A stretch of 39,579 nt of DNA from a virus. The stretch lies in the UHGV virus genome UHGV-0251828; one strand, given 5' to 3'. Every line of letters begins with the position of its first letter. The stretch's first letter is position 1. A program made the translations under genes and the position numbers. Of the stretch, positions 4,240-33,811 are shown piece after piece. The notes beneath the pieces were generated by a model, which saw only the letters and a program-made list of their open reading frames with translations, was not told the DNA's origin and did not search any database.

Positions 4240-6042
4240 TTAACCTCTCAAGAAACACGCCACAGCGACATCAAACAGGCTGGAATCCTGTATTGCCTGC
4301 TCACTTTCCCTGTTCGCTTCATCCAGTACTTCACGCGCGCTGCGCGATTGTGGATTACCATCATCATCCAGCACGGTGATTATCATGTCCGGAGATTCAA
4401 GCAGCGAGTCTTCAGCTATACGCAGATCAATATCTCCTGCCGGATCTGCCATCATTTTTTGTTCTGTCTGTTGCAATATCTTACCGGGCTCAAAAGGAGC
4501 TACTTCGTCTGGCGTCCTGACCTCTGCTGTTTTATAGAATGAAACAGCCTGAGCATTAAGTTCACTTTCTGCCTGCTGTCGCCGTGCCAGTTCTGCTCGA
4601 GCTTCAAAAAACTGACCGCCAGGCTCATGCGGTGCCAACGCGTTACGGGAAAATTCCAGGCGTTCTTGTGCCTGCCGGATTCGTTGGTCAATATCGCGCA
4701 GTCTGGCCTGTTTATCTGATCGAGCACGAGATAAAGCCTTACCGCTACCGGTTGGCTCTTCTGCAAGAATTTGTGCGCGCTGTTCAGTGAGATTTTCAAT
4801 AATTCGTTGGCTATTAGCGATTTCAGACTGGTAAACCTGTCTATCGCCACGCGGCAAAAGCTGCGCGGCCTGTTCTTCAAGCAACCGATTTTCTATAGCG
4901 CGCGCCGTTACTCCATCATCTACAGATGACAGAGCCTCATTAACTGCCTGAGACAGCAGACTCTTGCGCCCAGGAATTTCACTGAAAGATGCAGACTCAA
5001 CAATGCTGGCAACGTCTACAGGCCTCCCCTGGCTAACATCAGACATGGCTTTTCGCAGAGCCTGAATGTGCGAATTACGCGAAAGCACGTTGATCGGAAC
5101 GCCGGGCGCAATATCAATTTCAGCATGATGAGCGGCATTCGCCGCCAGTGCAGCATCGATATCAACTGGTGAAAAATTTGGTGCGTTTGTAGACTCGCCG
5201 CGAGAGTTAATAAATCTGCCGACACCACCAAACGCCACCCCAAGAACAGCATCAATAGCAATTGCCTGTCGATCCAACACATCATACTGGTTAGCCATTT
5301 CGCTATAGCCACCATCACGAAGCGTTTTTGCAGTAAGCCCACGCTGTGCCATACCGAACGCAATATTTGTACCTGCGGCATAGGCAATATCTGGCGTTGC
5401 ACGTACTGCTGTTGCTGCGGCGCGTCGCACTGAACTCTCACCCGTCCGCGCAAGCTGAGCCGCCACACCTTCCGCCAGCGCACCACCAGCACGTAACCCG
5501 AGGCTCATAGGGATCAGTGTTCCGGCACCAGCAGTAATGCCCTGCACTAATCCCGCTTCCTGCGCCGTCCTGAAATCAACACCCTGTGCTGTCAGCCGTT
5601 CAAACTCAGAAAAACCCTGTAGCGAAGTTACCGCCGCTGCACCTCCGACAGGACCTCCGAGCGTTGTACCGACAACAGCCTGCCCGCCCATATCGAACAA
5701 CCCATAAAGAACCTGCCCGGCGGTTCCGGTTGTCGCGGCATCAGGCGTCAGCCGCTTAACCTGCTGCTCTGCTAGTTTTCTCTGCTCAGCAATGTATGAA
5801 ACTGAAGTGTCATTGAGCGAGGTGTTTTCGTTAACAAACTGAGCAATCGGGGATACGATTTTATCCATCCCTGCCCATAGCAACTGATCTGGCTTTGCCA
5901 CCAGCCCGGAGTACAAACCAGACAATGCCGCTCCTACAGCATTGTCGAAAAAACCAACATCGCTGTTAAAGCCAGCTGGATTTGATGCTGCTTCGTCAAG
6001 CTGCTGATTCTGGTTTACTGGATTAAGGCCAAAGTAACTCAT
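4240..6042 (-). CDS. internal virion/ejection protein
   Basis: 600-aa track ORF; ATGA overlap with upstream gene; Gly/Ala-rich. Confidence 0.75.
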   Translation of the reverse strand: MSYFGLNPVNQNQQLDEAASNPAGFNSDVGFFDNAVGAALSGLYSGLVAKPDQLLWAGMDKIVSPIAQFVNENTSLNDTSVSYIAEQRKLAEQQVKRLTPDAATTGTAGQVLYGLFDMGGQAVVGTTLGGPVGGAAAVTSLQGFSEFERLTAQGVDFRTAQEAGLVQGITAGAGTLIPMSLGLRAGGALAEGVAAQLARTGESSVRRAAATAVRATPDIAYAAGTNIAFGMAQRGLTAKTLRDGGYSEMANQYDVLDRQAIAIDAVLGVAFGGVGRFINSRGESTNAPNFSPVDIDAALAANAAHHAEIDIAPGVPINVLSRNSHIQALRKAMSDVSQGRPVDVASIVESASFSEIPGRKSLLSQAVNEALSSVDDGVTARAIENRLLEEQAAQLLPRGDRQVYQSEIANSQRIIENLTEQRAQILAEEPTGSGKALSRARSDKQARLRDIDQRIRQAQERLEFSRNALAPHEPGGQFFEARAELARRQQAESELNAQAVSFYKTAEVRTPDEVAPFEPGKILQQTEQKMMADPAGDIDLRIAEDSLLESPDMIITVLDDDGNPQSRSAREVLDEANRESEQAIQDSSLFDVAVACFLRG

Positions 6043-9097: not shown

Positions 9098-9561
9098 TAT
9101 TTTCTCTCCATGTGAAATCTGTGGAAATTAAGACCAAGAGCACCATAAGGCGCGGCTTCTTCAAGCCTGAATCCAAGCCAGTGCAGCCATGCTTTGGCAA
9201 CATGGTTTCGCTCGTCGACGTAGTTTTCCAGGCGCGGATAAACTGCCAGCATCTGCTGCAATACCGGGCGGCAGTGGCGCAGAAATGTCTTCTGATATTT
9301 TTCAATACGGCTTGTCCCGACCAGCCATGGCGTACCATTGCCACCGATCATTGACGCCGGAGATACACCAAACATGGTTACCAGTTCTCCGTTCGCAAAT
9401 CCTGACCAGGCCATAGTCGCAGTGCGCAGACCAACACGCAGCGCATCTTCGGTAGTCATCAGCGATACCGCATACAGTTCGTCAATATCAGCCTGACGAA
9501 CATCCGGCAAAATCATCTGAAGATGCTCTTCGGTTGCGGGAATAATTTGAACATCGATCAT
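9097..9561 (-). CDS. internal virion protein A-like (154 aa)
   Basis: Track ORF; start overlaps upstream stop. Confidence 0.6.
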   Translation of the reverse strand: MIDVQIIPATEEHLQMILPDVRQADIDELYAVSLMTTEDALRVGLRTATMAWSGFANGELVTMFGVSPASMIGGNGTPWLVGTSRIEKYQKTFLRHCRPVLQQMLAVYPRLENYVDERNHVAKAWLHWLGFRLEEAAPYGALGLNFHRFHMERK

Positions 9562-12026
9562 CAGAATCCCCCAACAGTAAGGCGAGGAATAACGGCAAGA
9601 ACAGACAGCGGCAACGGATCAAGCTGACGGATTTTTACACGCCCGTTTTTGCCCCAGTTACTGTCCAGTTTCACTTCTACTTTTCCGGTAGCATCATCAA
9701 CAGGATCATCGTAGAACTCGAATTCACGCTGTGGATATTCGTACCATTTACCGCCGGGCGTAGTCGCCCAGATGCCGCGACTGGCATTCACAACCAGAGT
9801 AACGGAGGGGATCACCTGTTTTTTGTCCAGCAGCGTTTCCTGTCCGTTAATGTTGATATCCAGTGTTTCGAATTCAGCAGTTATTGGCAGGCCGATGTGC
9901 ACTACAGCCCCCGGAGATTCCAGCGTGACGGCACCTCCGGAAACCACTTTCTGTGGTTCCACGTTCGCATCAGAGAGAATGTTTACGGTCTGGCCTTCAA
10001 GATGAGACAGGCCTCCAAATGTCCGGCGCGCCATCTGCCAGTTCGTGGTGGCCACATTCCTGAGGGATGGCGGGACGTTCCTGTTAGCACGAACCACTAC
10101 AGCGGTATTACTGGTTACAGAAATAATGTCGCAACGTAATTCTTTTGACACCTCATCGCCAGTATCAGGTCCGGTATAAGGGAACTGTAGTTGCGCGCCG
10201 ACATCACTACTGGTGAAGTACGCACCACCAGAAACACTGATTGTATATTCCGCGCGGTAATCCCATTCGCCAGAACCACCAGTGATGATCATCGTTCTGT
10301 CAGACGTATTTCTTCCATCATAGCTAAGGCCAGAATCAACAAAGAAAGCATCTTCATCGCTGGTAAATAAACGGCTGGACAGTCGCTCGATGTATCTCAC
10401 TGTTTGCCCGTTAACGGTTCGGTTAACGACGAAATACACCGCATCTTCATTGCCTTCGCTGATACTGCATGTGCTTTCATATTTTCCGGTACTGGATTGT
10501 GGTGCCCATGCAAAAACCTGCTGATCACGCAAATAGGTCATCACCAGTAATTTACCGTCATCACGAATGCAGAAGGCACTGGAGTAAGGGACAATCGAGA
10601 AGCACCAGTCAACAATGCTGTGCTTCTGAAAAAGATGATTGGCAAGGATGGTCAGGTCGTTCCCCTGATAGCCGTCAACATCGAATGAGTAGGCCAGATC
10701 ACGGACAACGCTGCCTTTCTCCTGGACGAACAGAGCAATATTCGCCACGGCAATTGGCGGGACGTTGCTTGAGCCATTTGATCCCTGAGAGCTGAATGCA
10801 AATGATGATGGGGTTAACACTTTGTTCTGGTCGCCGGTGATGACGTACTCACCTCCGGAAGTCAGCGCCACCAGAGAACCAACATCAATCAGGTGGCGGA
10901 TCTCATTAACCTGACGTCCGGCATAGGTGTAGATAATTCTGTCGTCATCCTGCGTAGGATTGCTTTTGCCAAAATCCTTATAATCCCCGGTACGGCTGGC
11001 CCAGATAGTCTGAGGAAACGCAGTCGATGCGGCGAAGTAAAGACGTTGTTGATAATAAACAACAGTGCCAGGATAACCATTAACACTGTTCCAGGCATAT
11101 TTAGCCCATTTATAGCTGGCATTATCCTCGCCAACGACCTGCGAAGGGATATAGGAAATCACCTCGGCAGTTGCAGTAGTTCCATTTGCAGCAGTGATAC
11201 GGGCAATGCCAAAACCACTGTGCAGATATTCCCACTCAATGCCAGTATCATCATCACCGGATCCGCCCCAGCCATCCCATGATGTGCCTTCTGTATGCGA
11301 AGGGCGCAAAGTACCTGTTTTGCCTGCTGTAACGGCGCGATAGTAGTTACTGTCTGCACGGCGAATATCGCCAATCGACGTACTCTTACTGGTTTCCCAT
11401 ACCGGCACAGAATCCACTGCAGGCTGTTCCAGATAGAACAATTTGCCTACCTGCTCCGCGCCAAAAATAGAGGCGCTTGCCGTTAACGTAATTGTCCCGG
11501 TGCTGGCGCTGGCATAAACCGTCACTGACTCGTCAATATTGATATCTTCAAATGGCCCGTTCTTCGTTACCACATCAACCAGTTGCCAGTTGTCATGAGC
11601 ATATCGGCGCAACTCTTTCGGCGGGTATGCCGGGTGAACCAGCGTAAGCACGTCGGCGCTTTGCGTGAATTTAATTCGGAACAGATCGGCTTCAGTATAT
11701 GGCGTGGCAATTTCATAAATAACATTGCTGCTGTTCAGCACCAACGCACCATCTTTGATAACGCGCATGTACTGGTGTCCGAACTCCAGAGCATAGGTCT
11801 GAACCGTCGAGAACTGGAACGGGATCAGGCGGCATTTCCGATTTGGGTATTTGGCGGCACCGACAAAACGCGTACCAGGTCGATTCTCAACGCCGCCATA
11901 CTGCCGCACGATAAAGTTATCGCACTTGCGCAATGCCACCTGGTACTTCGCCATGTCAATACGCCCGTACAACGACGGTCCAATCTCACCACCGGCAAAG
12001 CTGGGCTGGATCCAACTGATAGCCAT
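9561..12026 (-). CDS. tail tubular protein B-like (821 aa)
   Basis: Track ORF; size and position after tubular A-like gene. Confidence 0.7.
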   Translation of the reverse strand: MAISWIQPSFAGGEIGPSLYGRIDMAKYQVALRKCDNFIVRQYGGVENRPGTRFVGAAKYPNRKCRLIPFQFSTVQTYALEFGHQYMRVIKDGALVLNSSNVIYEIATPYTEADLFRIKFTQSADVLTLVHPAYPPKELRRYAHDNWQLVDVVTKNGPFEDINIDESVTVYASASTGTITLTASASIFGAEQVGKLFYLEQPAVDSVPVWETSKSTSIGDIRRADSNYYRAVTAGKTGTLRPSHTEGTSWDGWGGSGDDDTGIEWEYLHSGFGIARITAANGTTATAEVISYIPSQVVGEDNASYKWAKYAWNSVNGYPGTVVYYQQRLYFAASTAFPQTIWASRTGDYKDFGKSNPTQDDDRIIYTYAGRQVNEIRHLIDVGSLVALTSGGEYVITGDQNKVLTPSSFAFSSQGSNGSSNVPPIAVANIALFVQEKGSVVRDLAYSFDVDGYQGNDLTILANHLFQKHSIVDWCFSIVPYSSAFCIRDDGKLLVMTYLRDQQVFAWAPQSSTGKYESTCSISEGNEDAVYFVVNRTVNGQTVRYIERLSSRLFTSDEDAFFVDSGLSYDGRNTSDRTMIITGGSGEWDYRAEYTISVSGGAYFTSSDVGAQLQFPYTGPDTGDEVSKELRCDIISVTSNTAVVVRANRNVPPSLRNVATTNWQMARRTFGGLSHLEGQTVNILSDANVEPQKVVSGGAVTLESPGAVVHIGLPITAEFETLDININGQETLLDKKQVIPSVTLVVNASRGIWATTPGGKWYEYPQREFEFYDDPVDDATGKVEVKLDSNWGKNGRVKIRQLDPLPLSVLAVIPRLTVGGF

Positions 12027-18159: not shown

Positions 18160-18236
18160 GTGGCATTAGCTCAGTTGGACAGAGCAACCGCCTTCTAAGC
18201 GGTTGGTCGCAGGTTCGAATCCTGCATGCCACGCCA
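18160..18236 (+). tRNA. tRNA-Arg (anticodon TCT)
   Basis: Hand-folded cloverleaf: 7-bp acceptor GTGGCAT/ATGCCAC, D-stem GCTC/GAGC, anticodon stem ACCGC/GCGGT with loop CTTCTAA, T-stem GCAGG/CCTGC, T-loop TTCGAAT, encoded CCA. Confidence 0.9.
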
Positions 18237-26880: not shown

Positions 26881-26895
26881 TTACCTTTGAGGTAT
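26881..26895. promoter_or_regulatory. operator-family site TTACCTTTGAGGTAT (one mismatch)
   Basis: Between the Cro-like gene and the next early gene. Confidence 0.35.
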
Positions 26896-26904
26896 GAATA
26901 GATA

Positions 26905-26928
26905 TGAAAAGACCGCCGGGTGGCGGTC
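26905..26928 (-). terminator. tR1-like hairpin downstream of the Cro-like gene
   Basis: GACCGCC-GGGT-GGCGGTC stem-loop with 4-U tract on minus strand. Confidence 0.4.
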
Positions 26929-26950
26929 TACAGAGGGTTGTGGCTGGATA

Positions 26951-27335: not shown

Positions 27336-27920
27336 ATGAAAAGTATCCAGGACGTCCGCAGGCAAAATCTCAACGACTTGATCGACCGTGAATTCAATGG
27401 TGTTCAGACGCGGATGGCAGAAAAACTTGGAACTCAGGCAAATCTGGTAAACCGCTGGGCTCTTGGCAAGAAGGTTATCGGCGACCAGGTTGCGCGAAAA
27501 ATTGAAGCTGCCGCCAATAAACCCCGTAACTGGCTTGATATTGATCGTTCGCTTTCTCAGGAGGGTTTTCAGCCTGTCGGCCCGAGCGATATAGGTCAGC
27601 TGGCGGCTCACAACCTGGAACGCTGGATGAGCGAAAGCCGCGACCTTTCAACACAGGGAAAACTTCACCGCGCATCCGGCGTCGCCCAGGTGACAATCAG
27701 CCGTCTGTTAAACAATGAGGTCAGCGTTTCCATTTCCACCCTGGAGAATGTTGCATCCGCATTCGGGCGTCACGGATATGAATTACTGATTCACCCGCAC
27801 GACCCCGCGACTATCAACTATGACCGCTCGCGCTACGCATTGTTACCTGAAACAGAGAAGGCAAAGATCGAAAGTTACATTGAATTTGTCATCAACCAGA
27901 ACGAAAAAAGCAAACAATAA
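27336..27920 (+). CDS. prophage repressor with two XRE-type HTH-like segments and no recognisable S24 peptidase domain
   Basis: 194-aa track ORF; position divergent from cro; strong terminator downstream. Confidence 0.75.
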   Translation: MKSIQDVRRQNLNDLIDREFNGVQTRMAEKLGTQANLVNRWALGKKVIGDQVARKIEAAANKPRNWLDIDRSLSQEGFQPVGPSDIGQLAAHNLERWMSESRDLSTQGKLHRASGVAQVTISRLLNNEVSVSISTLENVASAFGRHGYELLIHPHDPATINYDRSRYALLPETEKAKIESYIEFVINQNEKSKQ

Positions 27921-30273: not shown

Positions 30274-30522
30274 ATGAAAGGTGCATTAGATAAGAAGAAA
30301 CTCCTGGCGGTGGTGCCACTGTCATGGAGCACTATCGACCGTATGGAGCGCGCAGGGGAATTTCCTAAACGCTGGTATATCACTGACAAACGCTGCGCAT
30401 GGAACCGTGACGAAGTTGAGCGTTGGCTTGATGAACGTCAGGCAGCAAGCCCGGCAGAGTTCCAGGGTAAAAAGCCTCCTGTTCAGCAACGTGTATATCG
30501 TCCTGTGAGCAACGCTGCATGA
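30274..30522 (+). CDS. AlpA-family HTH DNA-binding protein (possible excisionase/regulator)
   Basis: 82-aa track ORF; GAGAGG SD. Confidence 0.6.
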   Translation: MKGALDKKKLLAVVPLSWSTIDRMERAGEFPKRWYITDKRCAWNRDEVERWLDERQAASPAEFQGKKPPVQQRVYRPVSNAA

Positions 30523-31768: not shown

Positions 31769-33019
31769 TTATTCCCCCGCCATCCACTTCTCAAACTTCG
31801 ACGGGGAGAACGGAATCAGATCCGTATGCTCCCCGTTAATCCAGGAATCAATCATATCGGCCCACTGCTGCAACATGTAGGCGCGCTGTCTGGCGTATTC
31901 CGCTTTGTTATATACGGCGCGCACACCTTTCTGCTCATGTGCCAGAGCCTTTTCAATCCAGTCTGAAGGATAACCAGCCTCATGCAACAACGTACTGGCT
32001 GTACGGCGCATATCATGTACAGTGAAGTCCTGAATATGCTCACCATCTTCATTTATTATATTCACCGTTCTGTCGATCAGAGAGTTCAGCGCGGCATTAG
32101 ATAATGGCTTCCGGAAATTGTAACGACCAGGAACCAGATATTCACTTCCACCAGCGCACATCTGCAACCCGACCAATATATCCTGAGCCTGTTTAGGCAG
32201 GTAAATAACGTGCGCCCGGCTTCCCTTCATGCGGTCTGAAGGAATTGTCCATGTCCATTTTTTAAAATCTATTTCATCCCACGTTGCATTGGTGAATTCG
32301 CCTTTACGAACCATAGTGATAAGCACCAGCTTTAAAGCCATTTTCATAGTGCCCATAGCACCAATGGCATCCAGCGTGCGGAAGAACAGGCCAATTTCTT
32401 CTGGTGTCAGTGTTCGCTCTCGTGGTTTAAATATGGCGATAGACGAAGGTTTAATGTCAGCCGCAGGATTAAACAAACCATGACCACGGTCATTGGCGTA
32501 ACGGTATACGCTGCTGATTATTTCCCTGGCCTGTACTGCTGTTGCCCGACCACCGCGTTCGACAATCCGGTCACACAAATCACGAACCATCGATGTGGTA
32601 ATTTCAGCCATCATTTTGTTGCCAAGAACCGGAAGTATGTCACGGTCGATCACTGCCTGCTTCATTGCGCGGGTACTTTCAGCCAGGATGACGTGTTTCA
32701 TATAACTGTCGGTATGTACCGCAAACGTTTCGGCACCACGAATCTTTTTGATACCGTCACGTTTAGCCGCAGCCGGTGACTGGCCTGCTTTAAGCAGCTT
32801 CTTTGCAGCAATCAGTTCTTCTCGCGCTTCTGCCAGGCTGACACCGTCACGCCCATACTGCCCGATTACCAGTGTTTCGCGGCGACCGTTGATACGGTAG
32901 TCATAGCGAAACGAGACCGTACCTGACGTAAGCACAGCTACATACAGCCCGTCACGATCGGAGACCTTGTACAGTTTTTCCTGCGGCTTGAGGTTTTTTA
33001 ATTTTGTATCGGTAAGCAC
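31769..33019 (-). CDS. int: tyrosine integrase (P4-type)
   Basis: 416-aa track ORF with GTG start; size and composition typical of P4-family integrases. Confidence 0.85.
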   Translation of the reverse strand: MLTDTKLKNLKPQEKLYKVSDRDGLYVAVLTSGTVSFRYDYRINGRRETLVIGQYGRDGVSLAEAREELIAAKKLLKAGQSPAAAKRDGIKKIRGAETFAVHTDSYMKHVILAESTRAMKQAVIDRDILPVLGNKMMAEITTSMVRDLCDRIVERGGRATAVQAREIISSVYRYANDRGHGLFNPAADIKPSSIAIFKPRERTLTPEEIGLFFRTLDAIGAMGTMKMALKLVLITMVRKGEFTNATWDEIDFKKWTWTIPSDRMKGSRAHVIYLPKQAQDILVGLQMCAGGSEYLVPGRYNFRKPLSNAALNSLIDRTVNIINEDGEHIQDFTVHDMRRTASTLLHEAGYPSDWIEKALAHEQKGVRAVYNKAEYARQRAYMLQQWADMIDSWINGEHTDLIPFSPSKFEKWMAGE

Positions 33020-33061
33020 AATTCACCCGTATAGAAACCATTTTCATGACGGTATGAGAGT

Positions 33062-33076
33062 ATACCTTTAAGGTAA
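33062..33076. promoter_or_regulatory. operator-like site ATACCTTTAAGGTAA upstream of int
   Basis: One mismatch to TTACC-N5-GGTAA. Confidence 0.35.
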
Positions 33077-33130
33077 TACCGTCACCTGTACCGCCGAAAA
33101 ATATGGTGTAGAGTGAATAGAAATGAATAC

Positions 33131-33163
33131 ATAAAAACAAAAACCCTCTGTAAAAACAGAGGG
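33131..33163 (-). terminator. strong intrinsic terminator ending the lysis operon
   Basis: CCCTCTG-TAAAAA-CAGAGGG hairpin followed on minus strand by TTTTTGTTTTT. Confidence 0.75.
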
Positions 33164-33313
33164 TTGAGTTAGTATCTGAATAGGAATGATTTGCTATGAG
33201 TTAGCTGTTAATCATTCCCACTCAATTATTTACGACATGCATAATTAATTGACTGATAACAACTTTCTGCAACATGATTTTCACCGTACCGTTTTATATA
33301 CCGTCACCGAAAA

Positions 33314-33811
33314 TCAGTACCACGATTTTTGCTTCTTCAGTGAATCGTATTGCTGTTCGCAGGATTCTCCTGCAATCCGATACTTTTCAGCCTCAGCTGC
33401 TGTTGCGTTGTAAACTCGGTTGCTTTCTTCAAGCATGTCGGCGAGCACACCGATGACCTTGCTGGCTGGCGTGCCAGTGGGGAAAGATCCGGTATAGTGT
33501 TCGGCGAGTCGCTTGGTTTTGTCAAGCTCGGCGCGCAGGCTGTCAGCAGCGGCATTAGCATGCTCAGCATCAACACGCGCCACATCGATACGGGATTGTG
33601 TTTCACGTTCAATTTGTGTTTTCTCCTGATCACGTTGTGACCTGGCCTTATCATCAGCCTGTTTCTGATCTTCCTGTGCCTGCGCATACCCGGCGTCGTA
33701 CTGACGACTGCCGTGTGCATTCCAGGCTACAACTCCTGATATGACCAGAACAGCAAGCATCGCCATGATAACCAACTGTTTCCAGTATGCTTTTGCGAAT
33801 GCCCAGATCAT
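33314..33811 (-). CDS. Rz-like i-spanin
   Basis: 165 aa; N-terminal TM segment then charged coiled-coil; start overlaps endolysin stop. Confidence 0.65.
33337..33585 (-). CDS. Rz1-like o-spanin lipoprotein embedded in the Rz frame; start uncertain
   Basis: Alternate frame inside Rz; signal peptide with lipobox LTAC and Pro-rich mature part. Confidence 0.45.
   Translation of the reverse strand: MWRVLMLSMLMPLLTACAPSLTKPSDSPNTIPDLSPLARQPARSSVCSPTCLKKATEFTTQQQLRLKSIGLQENPANSNTIH

Follow-up and report, generated by a model that had tools for sequence, protein, structure and literature searches.

Organization of the int-Rz intergenic region

The window, that is, the whole stretch of 39,579 nucleotides analysed here, is a virus genome (UHGV-0251828). 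In the window, an intergenic region (33020-33313) is located between an integrase gene (int) and an Rz-like spanin gene. An earlier note on this DNA had proposed that the region contains a phage attachment site (attP) with an arm-site/core/arm-site organisation, lying between int and the lysis terminator. The features that we assign to the locus are collected in Table 1.

Table 1. Features of the int-attP-Rz locus, with coordinates of the window and the strand where one applies
Feature	Position	Strand	Basis
AlpA-family small HTH protein, candidate excisionase (recombination directionality factor)	30274-30522	+	Pfam Phage_AlpA
int, P4-type heterobivalent tyrosine integrase	31769-33019	-	Pfam domains
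Intragenic arm-like site ATACCGTCACG, perfect, Int codons R87-D88-G89-I90	32751-32761	+	Codon conservation
Intragenic arm-like site ACACCGTCACG, one mismatch in this phage, Int codons D58-G59-V60	32841-32851	+	Codon conservation
Int-proximal arm, inverted arm-type site TGACGGTAT	33047-33055	+	Inverted copy kept in relatives
Palindrome TACCTTTAAGGTA, probable phage-repressor operator	33063-33075		TACC-N5-GGTA family
Int-proximal arm, full arm-type site ATACCGTCACC	33076-33086	+	9/11 columns invariant in 9 phages
Int-proximal arm, partial arm-type site GTACCGCC	33088-33095	+	TACCG 12 bp from full-site TACCG
Second copy of conserved motif, TGAATAGAAATGA	33114-33126	+	10/13 columns invariant; 63 bp from the copy at 33177
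Intrinsic terminator in attP	33142-33165	-	10-bp stem and T-run; fold z = -5.5
Conserved block between core and terminator	33177-33209		Invariant columns, RNA fold
Common core (attP = attB), AATCATTCCCACTCAAT, 17 bp	33210-33226	-	Junction mapping; exact 17-mer once in the window
Probable strand-exchange region TCCCACTC, reverse complement of GAGTGGGA	33216-33223	-	Inferred position
Candidate IHF site WATCARNNNNTTR, between core and Rz-side arm sites	33246-33258	-	Consensus match
Rz-side arm, partial arm-type site GTACCGT	33286-33292	+	6/7 columns invariant
Rz-side arm, full arm-type site ATACCGTCACC	33298-33308	+	10/11 columns invariant in 9 phages
Rz-like spanin gene	33314-33811	-	Stop borders the intergenic region 33020-33313

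The Int protein contains the domains Arm-DNA-bind_3 (PF13356, 3.3e-20), Phage_int_M (PF22022) and Phage_integrase (PF00589), and Int proteins of 98% identity occur in phiV10-like phages. The AlpA-family ORF scores 23.1 bits with Pfam Phage_AlpA, barely above the cut-off of 21; by its family, the encoded protein would be the likely excision factor.

No record is identical to the window, which as a whole is related in mosaic fashion to vB_EcoP_ZX5 and phiv142-3. A search of the window for terminal redundancy found none. The intergenic region shares 93-96% identity with that of phiV10-like E. coli phages and 83-87% with that of epsilon15, SPN1S, PAT1 and Tyrion, all of them members of Uetakevirus. 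For the int-attP module, homology to the type phages amounts to 83-96% identity across 98-100% of the region. The gene order Rz - attP - int is the same in the window and in the Uetakevirus type phages. Homology to the phiV10 group stops at approximately 33325, just past the last arm repeat, and a different lysis cassette follows from there, so that int and attP behave as a single module.

Prophage junctions at guaA define a 17-bp core

Of 5426 complete E. coli genomes, 569 carry the int-side sequence, and prophages at guaA are found in approximately 1 in 10 E. coli genomes. In most of the matches listed, the int-side homology ends at window position 33226, beside an annotated guaA. The Rz-side match starts at 33210. 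We read attL and attR in one lysogen (NZ_CP145703) and attB in the empty site of K-12. The comparison of the lysogen with the empty site revealed an identity block of 17 bp, which is the common core. The phage site reads ctgtt AATCATTCCCACTCAAT tatttac and the host site reads ggtca AATCATTCCCACTCAAT ggtagc, and both junctions of this lysogen are the expected attP/attB hybrids. The earlier note had advised a comparison with host genomes for a short identical core; such a block is found at the 3' end of guaA, and the lysogen junctions fall at 33210-33226, inside the proposed region. Its reading of 33020-33313 as attP is thereby borne out.

The core (ATTGAGTGGGAATGATT, an exact 17-bp match on the minus strand that is common to the 3' end of guaA) reads ATT GAG TGG GAA TGA tt on this strand, which corresponds to the final four codons of guaA, its stop codon (33212-33214) and two further nucleotides. 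With these four codons and the stop present in the core, integration leaves GuaA unchanged. The junctions, the core, the preservation of guaA, the exchange of terminators described below and the conservation of the motifs are established by comparing sequences. In the reaction that we propose, the P4-type Int would recombine the 17-bp core with the identical 3' end of host guaA. Knowing that the phage integrates at guaA and spares the gene helps annotation, the delimitation of prophages at this locus and the construction of integration vectors.

We conclude, with a probability of about 93%, that the region is the attP of a temperate podophage of the epsilon15/phiV10 type, within the genus Uetakevirus (epsilon15/phiV10/ZX5-like). 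The finding is correct but ordinary, as the site has been described previously for close relatives. In ZX5, the same 17-mer was verified as attP/attB by junction PCR and Sanger sequencing, and according to the same paper this attachment sequence is also proven for phiV10 and epsilon15 (PMC9782041).

Within the core, the probable strand-exchange region is flanked by the heptamers AATCATT (33210-33216) and AATTATT (33224-33230), which form an imperfect inverted repeat around CCCACTC. The two heptamers would fit core-type half-sites bordering a putative 7-bp overlap. GIsul2, a guaA-targeting island, has the core recombination motif GAGTGGGA (PMC9376610), and this motif falls inside the core of the window at 33216-33223. 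In alignment A2, all the guaA-linked relatives, some of which end guaA with TAA or TAG, have only GAGTGGGAAT of the core in common. Several distant relatives also adjoin the 3' end of a guaA gene, including Dechloromonas and Gallionella MAGs. An attachment site of the tRNA type is ruled out, the only tRNA of the window being a tRNA-Arg at 18160 and the core lying in guaA.

Arm-type sites flanking the core

The arm-type motif is a repeated ATACCGTCAC, which is GACGGTAT on the int strand. The 11-bp direct repeats reported at 33076 and 33298 are confirmed at these positions as ATACCGTCACC, a sequence with exactly two copies in the 39.6-kb window; when the 294-bp region was shuffled 1000 times with dinucleotides preserved, seven of the shuffles contained a direct repeat of at least 11 nt. 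An inverted partial copy had been placed at 33046. The copy is present, although its coordinates were off by one (Table 1). As an 8-mer, GACGGTAT/ATACCGTC has five copies in the whole window, four of which are within 32751-33305.

Each full site is accompanied by a partial one. On the Rz side, TACCG of the partial site is located 12 bp upstream of TACCG of the full site, and tandem pairs in distant relatives are also spaced by 12 bp. Measured from the core, the Rz-side tandem pair lies at 60-98 bp, and the tandem pair and inverted copy on the int side lie at 115-163 bp. With arm-type repeats flanking the 17-bp core on both sides, the arm-site/core/arm-site organisation suggested before holds. 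In the GenBank record of epsilon15, the homologous arm positions already carry a protein_bind annotation, 'integrase'.

We compared the region among nine diverged relatives, and the Rz-side arm was compared among nine GenBank phages only. The invariant columns amount to 9/11 and 10/11 in the full arm sites, 16/17 in the core and 4/4 in each of the TACC and GGTA halves of the palindrome, and to only 59/134 in the unassigned rest of the intergenic region. A scan of IMG/VR for diverged attP sites of free phages returned only relatives of 98-99% identity, mostly prophage calls starting at int.

The int side was followed further, in a survey covering 53 loci of related integrases in species-representative genomes, where the identity of Int ranges from 27% to 90%. 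Upstream of int, the layout consists of a GACGGTAT tandem pair (12 bp), an inverted copy and, often, a direct copy near the start codon. It is kept in Enterobacterales, Morganella, Oceanimonas, Tolumonas and Chromobacterium, and by motif search it is also found in relatives from Cupriavidus, Rhodocyclaceae, Caulobacter and Phenylobacterium, the flanks of which cannot be aligned. Tandem pairs of the form GACGGTA-N5-GACGGTAT are located at the same place in the Morganella, Oceanimonas, Edwardsiella and Chromobacterium relatives. The inverted ACCGTC copy at the position of 33047-33055 is present in all 17 sequences of A2, and also in Alpha- and Betaproteobacterial relatives. In relatives of only 47-63% identity (Morganella, Oceanimonas, Cupriavidus, Caulobacter and Phenylobacterium), GACGGTAT occurs three to five times within approximately 200 bp upstream of int; by our own estimate, chance would give an 8-mer approximately 0.006 times per 200 bp on both strands.

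Intasome assembly presumably proceeds as in lambda, with the GACGGTAT sites bound by the N-terminal arm-binding domain of Int. Every assignment of a protein to a site in this attP is made by analogy, and the same applies to the candidate IHF site. Its consensus match is the single one in the region, and there are eight in the whole window. At the aligned position, three of nine relatives match the consensus perfectly, five differ from it at one base and epsilon15 differs at four, and IHF features are annotated near this position in the epsilon15 record.

A terminator within attP

The lysis terminator had been taken as a boundary of the site, which is not the case: the terminator sits within attP, between the int-proximal arm sites and the core. 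Its stem is paired in 100% of cells in 16 relatives. We compared it with the host guaA terminator, taken from the K-12 attB and from the copy beside attR in the lysogen. Both 10-bp stem halves are identical to those of the host terminator, and the loop alone differs. In the free phage, the terminator at 33142-33165 closes the late/lysis operon; in the lysogen, it closes guaA before int, and the host guaA terminator comes to lie behind Rz and the phage lysis genes. Both transcription units thus have a terminator, whether the phage is integrated or free.

An operator-like palindrome in the presumed int promoter region

An operator-like site at 33062-33076 had been counted among the elements of the attP architecture. 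The palindrome itself is present (33063-33075), but judging from its sequence family it most likely serves as an operator for the phage repressor, within the presumed int promoter region, rather than in recombination. The pattern TACC-N5-GGTA has 13 copies in the window, compared with 0.2 expected, and none of 100 shuffles reaches 13. The copies are mostly intergenic, with two between the cro-like and repressor genes and two just downstream of the repressor gene. In epsilon15, there are also 13 copies, of which 7 coincide with annotated 'repressor' binding sites. The repressor Rep of the window (27336-27920) is a homologue of SPC32H Rep (PDB 5D50, E = 3.5e-42). In relatives, TACC and GGTA of the attP palindrome are invariant and the central five bases vary, as in the family consensus. 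The palindrome is absent from the distant non-phage relatives in A2.

Because the terminator lies directly upstream, int needs its own promoter within 33020-33141. A sigma-70 scan of the int strand gave no good promoter. By manual inspection, we notice a candidate with a good -10 element, TATACT (33064 to 33059), a poor -35 element and a 15-bp spacer. The candidate -10 element overlaps the palindrome, and arm sites are located on either side. Such a placement of the palindrome between two arm sites would probably put int under the control of both Int itself and the phage repressor. For KplE1 intS, a promoter embedded in attL overlaps arm-type sites, with negative autoregulation of the integrase gene (PMC2951348). 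By analogy, Int and the phage repressor would probably both act as repressors of int in this phage.

Arm-like sites inside int

Two further arm-like sites are located inside int, at a distance of 360-460 bp from the core, and both are annotated as integrase sites in the GenBank record of epsilon15. The site at 32841-32851 is degenerate in this phage and perfect in most relatives. Among 17 aligned relatives, the codons at this site are nearly fixed (D58 GAC in 15/15, G59 GGT in 16/17), and the same holds for the site at 32751-32761 (R87 CGT in 14/15, D88 GAC in 14/14, G89 GGT in 16/17). At other conserved D, G and R codons of Int, the commonest codon is used in only 29-82% of sequences, and at the non-motif R-D-G of Int codons 22-24 the codons vary freely. 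Ranking the motif codons within their amino-acid classes gives approximately 1 in 2900 by our own arithmetic. The codon usage suggests that the intragenic arm-like sites are under selection at the DNA level, exerted on synonymous codon positions.

Inverted repeats, the conserved block and alternative explanations

A 9-bp inverted repeat with an 18-bp spacer had been reported at 33183-33218, and it is found as GGAATGATT (33183-33191) and AATCATTCC (33210-33218). A single inverted repeat of at least 9 bp occurs in 81 of 1000 shuffles, so it is unremarkable alone. The repeat extends to an imperfect one of 15-24 bp. This phage has a perfect 9-bp version of this core-like repeat, which is imperfect in most Uetakevirus relatives. 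The left arm belongs to the conserved block 33177-33209, where TGAATAGGAATGA(TT) makes an inverted core-like copy; the block also holds a small palindrome, GCTA-N5-TAGC (33193-33205). This block could be a binding region for accessory proteins (RDF, IHF or Int), or it could form an RNA hairpin with the core.

Two of the alternative explanations conflict directly with the prophage junctions. One takes the inverted repeat 33183-33218 as the core itself, with strand exchange in the 18-bp spacer. It would account for the perfect 9-bp repeat, since a tyrosine-recombinase core is expected to show inverted core-type sites. The junctions, however, put the identity between phage and host at 33210-33226, and neither attB nor attR contains 33183-33209. 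Among the nine relatives, seven have an imperfect left arm, and an 18-bp spacer far exceeds the overlap regions of tyrosine recombinases, which are 6-8 bp long. Only the right arm of the repeat, then, is inside the core, and the spacer and left arm belong to the int side. Already refuted by the junction sequences, this explanation has almost no chance of being right. The other holds that the region is a regulatory intergenic one only, with a terminator, an int promoter and an operator, and that the repeats are operators or chance. The terminator is present, and the palindrome at 33063-33075 does belong to an operator-like family. Yet prophage junctions lie inside the region, repeats of this length are rare in shuffles, and the arm motif is kept beside related integrases in unrelated mobile elements that have no operator palindrome. 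As the sole explanation of the region, regulation is also refuted already and is highly improbable; the functions of regulation and recombination overlap here.

A further alternative concerns RNA. The inverted repeats 33047-33084 and 33176-33226 might be minus-strand RNA elements, namely RNase III hairpins controlling int expression or the stability of guaA mRNA, and not protein-binding DNA sites. Both fold better than shuffles on the minus strand (z = -2.9 for 33047-33084; -21.2 kcal/mol and z = -6.1 for 33176-33226), and the epsilon15 GenBank record labels RNaseIII sites at the window equivalents 33046-33084 and approximately 33169-33205. In the helix 33176-33226, the sole variation that preserves a pair is G-U to G-C, fitting a transcribed strand. 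On the other hand, 7 of 16 sequences lose one central pair of this helix, and since guaA coding fixes one arm, covariation in it gives no information. In 33047-33084, each substitution in the relatives breaks a pair and none is compensated. The arm 8-mer is also found in direct repeats, at other spacings in distant relatives, and beyond the core, observations that an RNA stem would leave unexplained. Because compensation is missing and the motif is used as direct repeats elsewhere, we read 33047-33084 as two protein sites, and the hairpin explanation of this arm-site inverted repeat is rejected. A search of Rfam for known RNA families gave nothing near threshold. As a replacement for protein-binding sites, the RNase III explanation seems unlikely to us; an RNA role of the 33176-33226 hairpin could be compatible with attP function and is no replacement for it.

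We notice that this core-containing hairpin covers the guaA stop codon. The core-like motif TGAATAGRAATGA has two copies in attP, at 33114 and 33177, and a third near-copy is located at 26895, beside an operator and a terminator. Neither the conserved block 33177-33209 nor the motif TGAATAGNNATGA is among the parts with an assigned role, and we counted both against the attP explanation.

A possible regulatory role of the attP arm

With the attP reading of the region in place, it is conceivable, although we would put the odds somewhat against it, that the attP arm also acts as a regulatory hub, through the nested operator, the selected intragenic sites, the swap of terminators and the core-containing hairpin. 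If so, the operator nested over the int promoter would let immunity directly gate the synthesis of Int, and possibly intasome assembly on attL. The arm motif GACGGTAT of the whole family, together with the nested operator, the intragenic sites and the exchange of terminators, would add detail on the coupling of immunity to integrase expression and to excision in these phages. We found no description of these hub features in the literature examined. The regulatory details are the only parts that might be new, as increments on a well-understood paradigm.

Comparison with known attachment systems

Among its relatives, the site is closest in design to attP of epsilon15, phiV10 and ZX5, with the same 17-bp core, arm repeats, terminator and position approximately 190 bp upstream of int. 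Over the region, identity is 93% with phiV10 and 84% with epsilon15, and nothing essential differs. The differences from these three phages are the Rz/lysis cassette and the degenerate intragenic site at 32841-32851.

The arrangement resembles lambda attP in its heterobivalent integrase, short common core, tandem arm sites on one side and a candidate IHF-like site between. In lambda, the arm-site distances are comparable, at approximately 60-100 bp on one side and approximately 115-165 bp on the other, with room for accessory proteins in both systems. Unlike in lambda, the integrase is of the P4 type (Arm-DNA-bind_3), the arm motif is GACGGTAT, the target is within the end of a protein-coding gene, and one arm contains the terminator together with the presumed int promoter. 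A further difference is the RDF candidate, which is of the AlpA type and located approximately 2.5 kb away instead of adjoining int.

As in the IntS-TorI system of KplE1/HK620, int reads away from the target gene. For this reason, the int promoter must sit in the attL/attP arm and overlap arm sites. The target is guaA here and tRNA-argW in KplE1/HK620, the integrase and RDF are also different, and, in contrast to KplE1, an extra repressor-type palindrome is present between the arm sites.

GIsul2 likewise inserts at the 3' end of guaA, with the motif GAGTGGGA within the core, and carries an alpA gene (PMC9376610); it is a resistance island, whereas the element studied here is a phage. For the kinship of the GIsul2 integrase, a tblastn search of plasmids gave many matches at 23-36% identity, none of which was tied to GIsul2.

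The satellite P4 integrates at a tRNA-Leu gene. It shares with this phage the domain architecture of the integrase, and the attP lies immediately beside int in both; the Int of phiV10 is annotated as cd00801 INT_P4.

Operator-like palindromes and the motif shared with attP

The 13-bp palindrome TACC-N5-GGTA, of which the predicted operator near int is one example, occurs 13 times in the whole window, against 0.2 copies expected. Most copies lie in intergenic promoter regions, and the extended form TATTACC...GGTAAT is frequent among them. Epsilon15 also carries 13 copies, only seven of which are annotated as repressor sites. Spread across the genome, this family is reminiscent of a repressor regime with many operators.

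The interval between the cro-like gene and its neighbor holds an operator palindrome, with TGAATAGATATGA directly behind it and a GC-rich terminator hairpin after that. The motif TGAATAGATATGA occurs twice in attP, and the order of terminator, motif and operator upstream of int matches that of the cro-side region.

Features in the window and in related records
Feature	Position	Strand	Remark
TACC-N5-GGTA copies	208, 17824, 20984, 24898, 24960, 26882, 27267, 27979, 28041, 33063, 34989, 38339, 38720
Palindrome, TGAATAGATATGA and hairpin	26882-26930		flanked by the cro-like gene and the following gene on the minus strand
Mosaic breakpoint	33314-33330		columns 322-354 of alignment A1
ORF holding ATTCCCACTCAAT	9561-12026	minus	821 aa, structural protein
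Internal core copy ATTCCCACTCAAT	11228-11240		exact over 13 nt
tRNA-Arg (TCT) gene	18160-18236		no relation to the attachment site
IS200C in the E. coli lysogen	NZ_CP145703 (L002), 5560-6018
Records from chicken E. coli and duck isolates	NZ_CM142789.1 (L144), 4435915-4439315
Further records of this set			NZ_CM142782.1, NZ_CP079771.1, NZ_CP079768.1

Integrase lineage and mosaic structure

The arm motif GACGGTAT is kept by integrases 47-58% identical to that of the window, in Dechloromonas (L035) and Gallionella (L040) metagenome-assembled genomes and in Caulobacter and Phenylobacterium (L048/L057). The Dechloromonas and Gallionella loci adjoin a guaA 3' end carrying an identical ATTGAGTGGGAATGA. 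Together, these observations make it appear that the guaA-targeting integrase lineage spans several proteobacterial classes.

The int-attP module of the window is nearest to phiV10-type phages, and its Rz/lysis cassette is common to PAT1, Tyrion and BUCT711. A mosaic breakpoint falls immediately past the last arm site.

Internal core copy and the phage in host records

An internal copy of the attP core, ATTCCCACTCAAT, reads I-E-W-E in frame and is oriented like the real core. The E. coli lysogen carries it too, and epsilon15 lacks it. This copy is probably a coincidence; it could be a pseudo-att site.

In the same lysogen, an IS200C is inserted immediately outside the Rz-side prophage junction, with yfgI on one side and the host guaA terminator on the other. 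The int-attP-Rz junction is intact and unrecombined in two chicken E. coli chromosomes. Each of these records has three matching places, which suggests either tandem lysogens or misassembly. In two duck isolates, the phage is a separate circular record of 41,027 bp.
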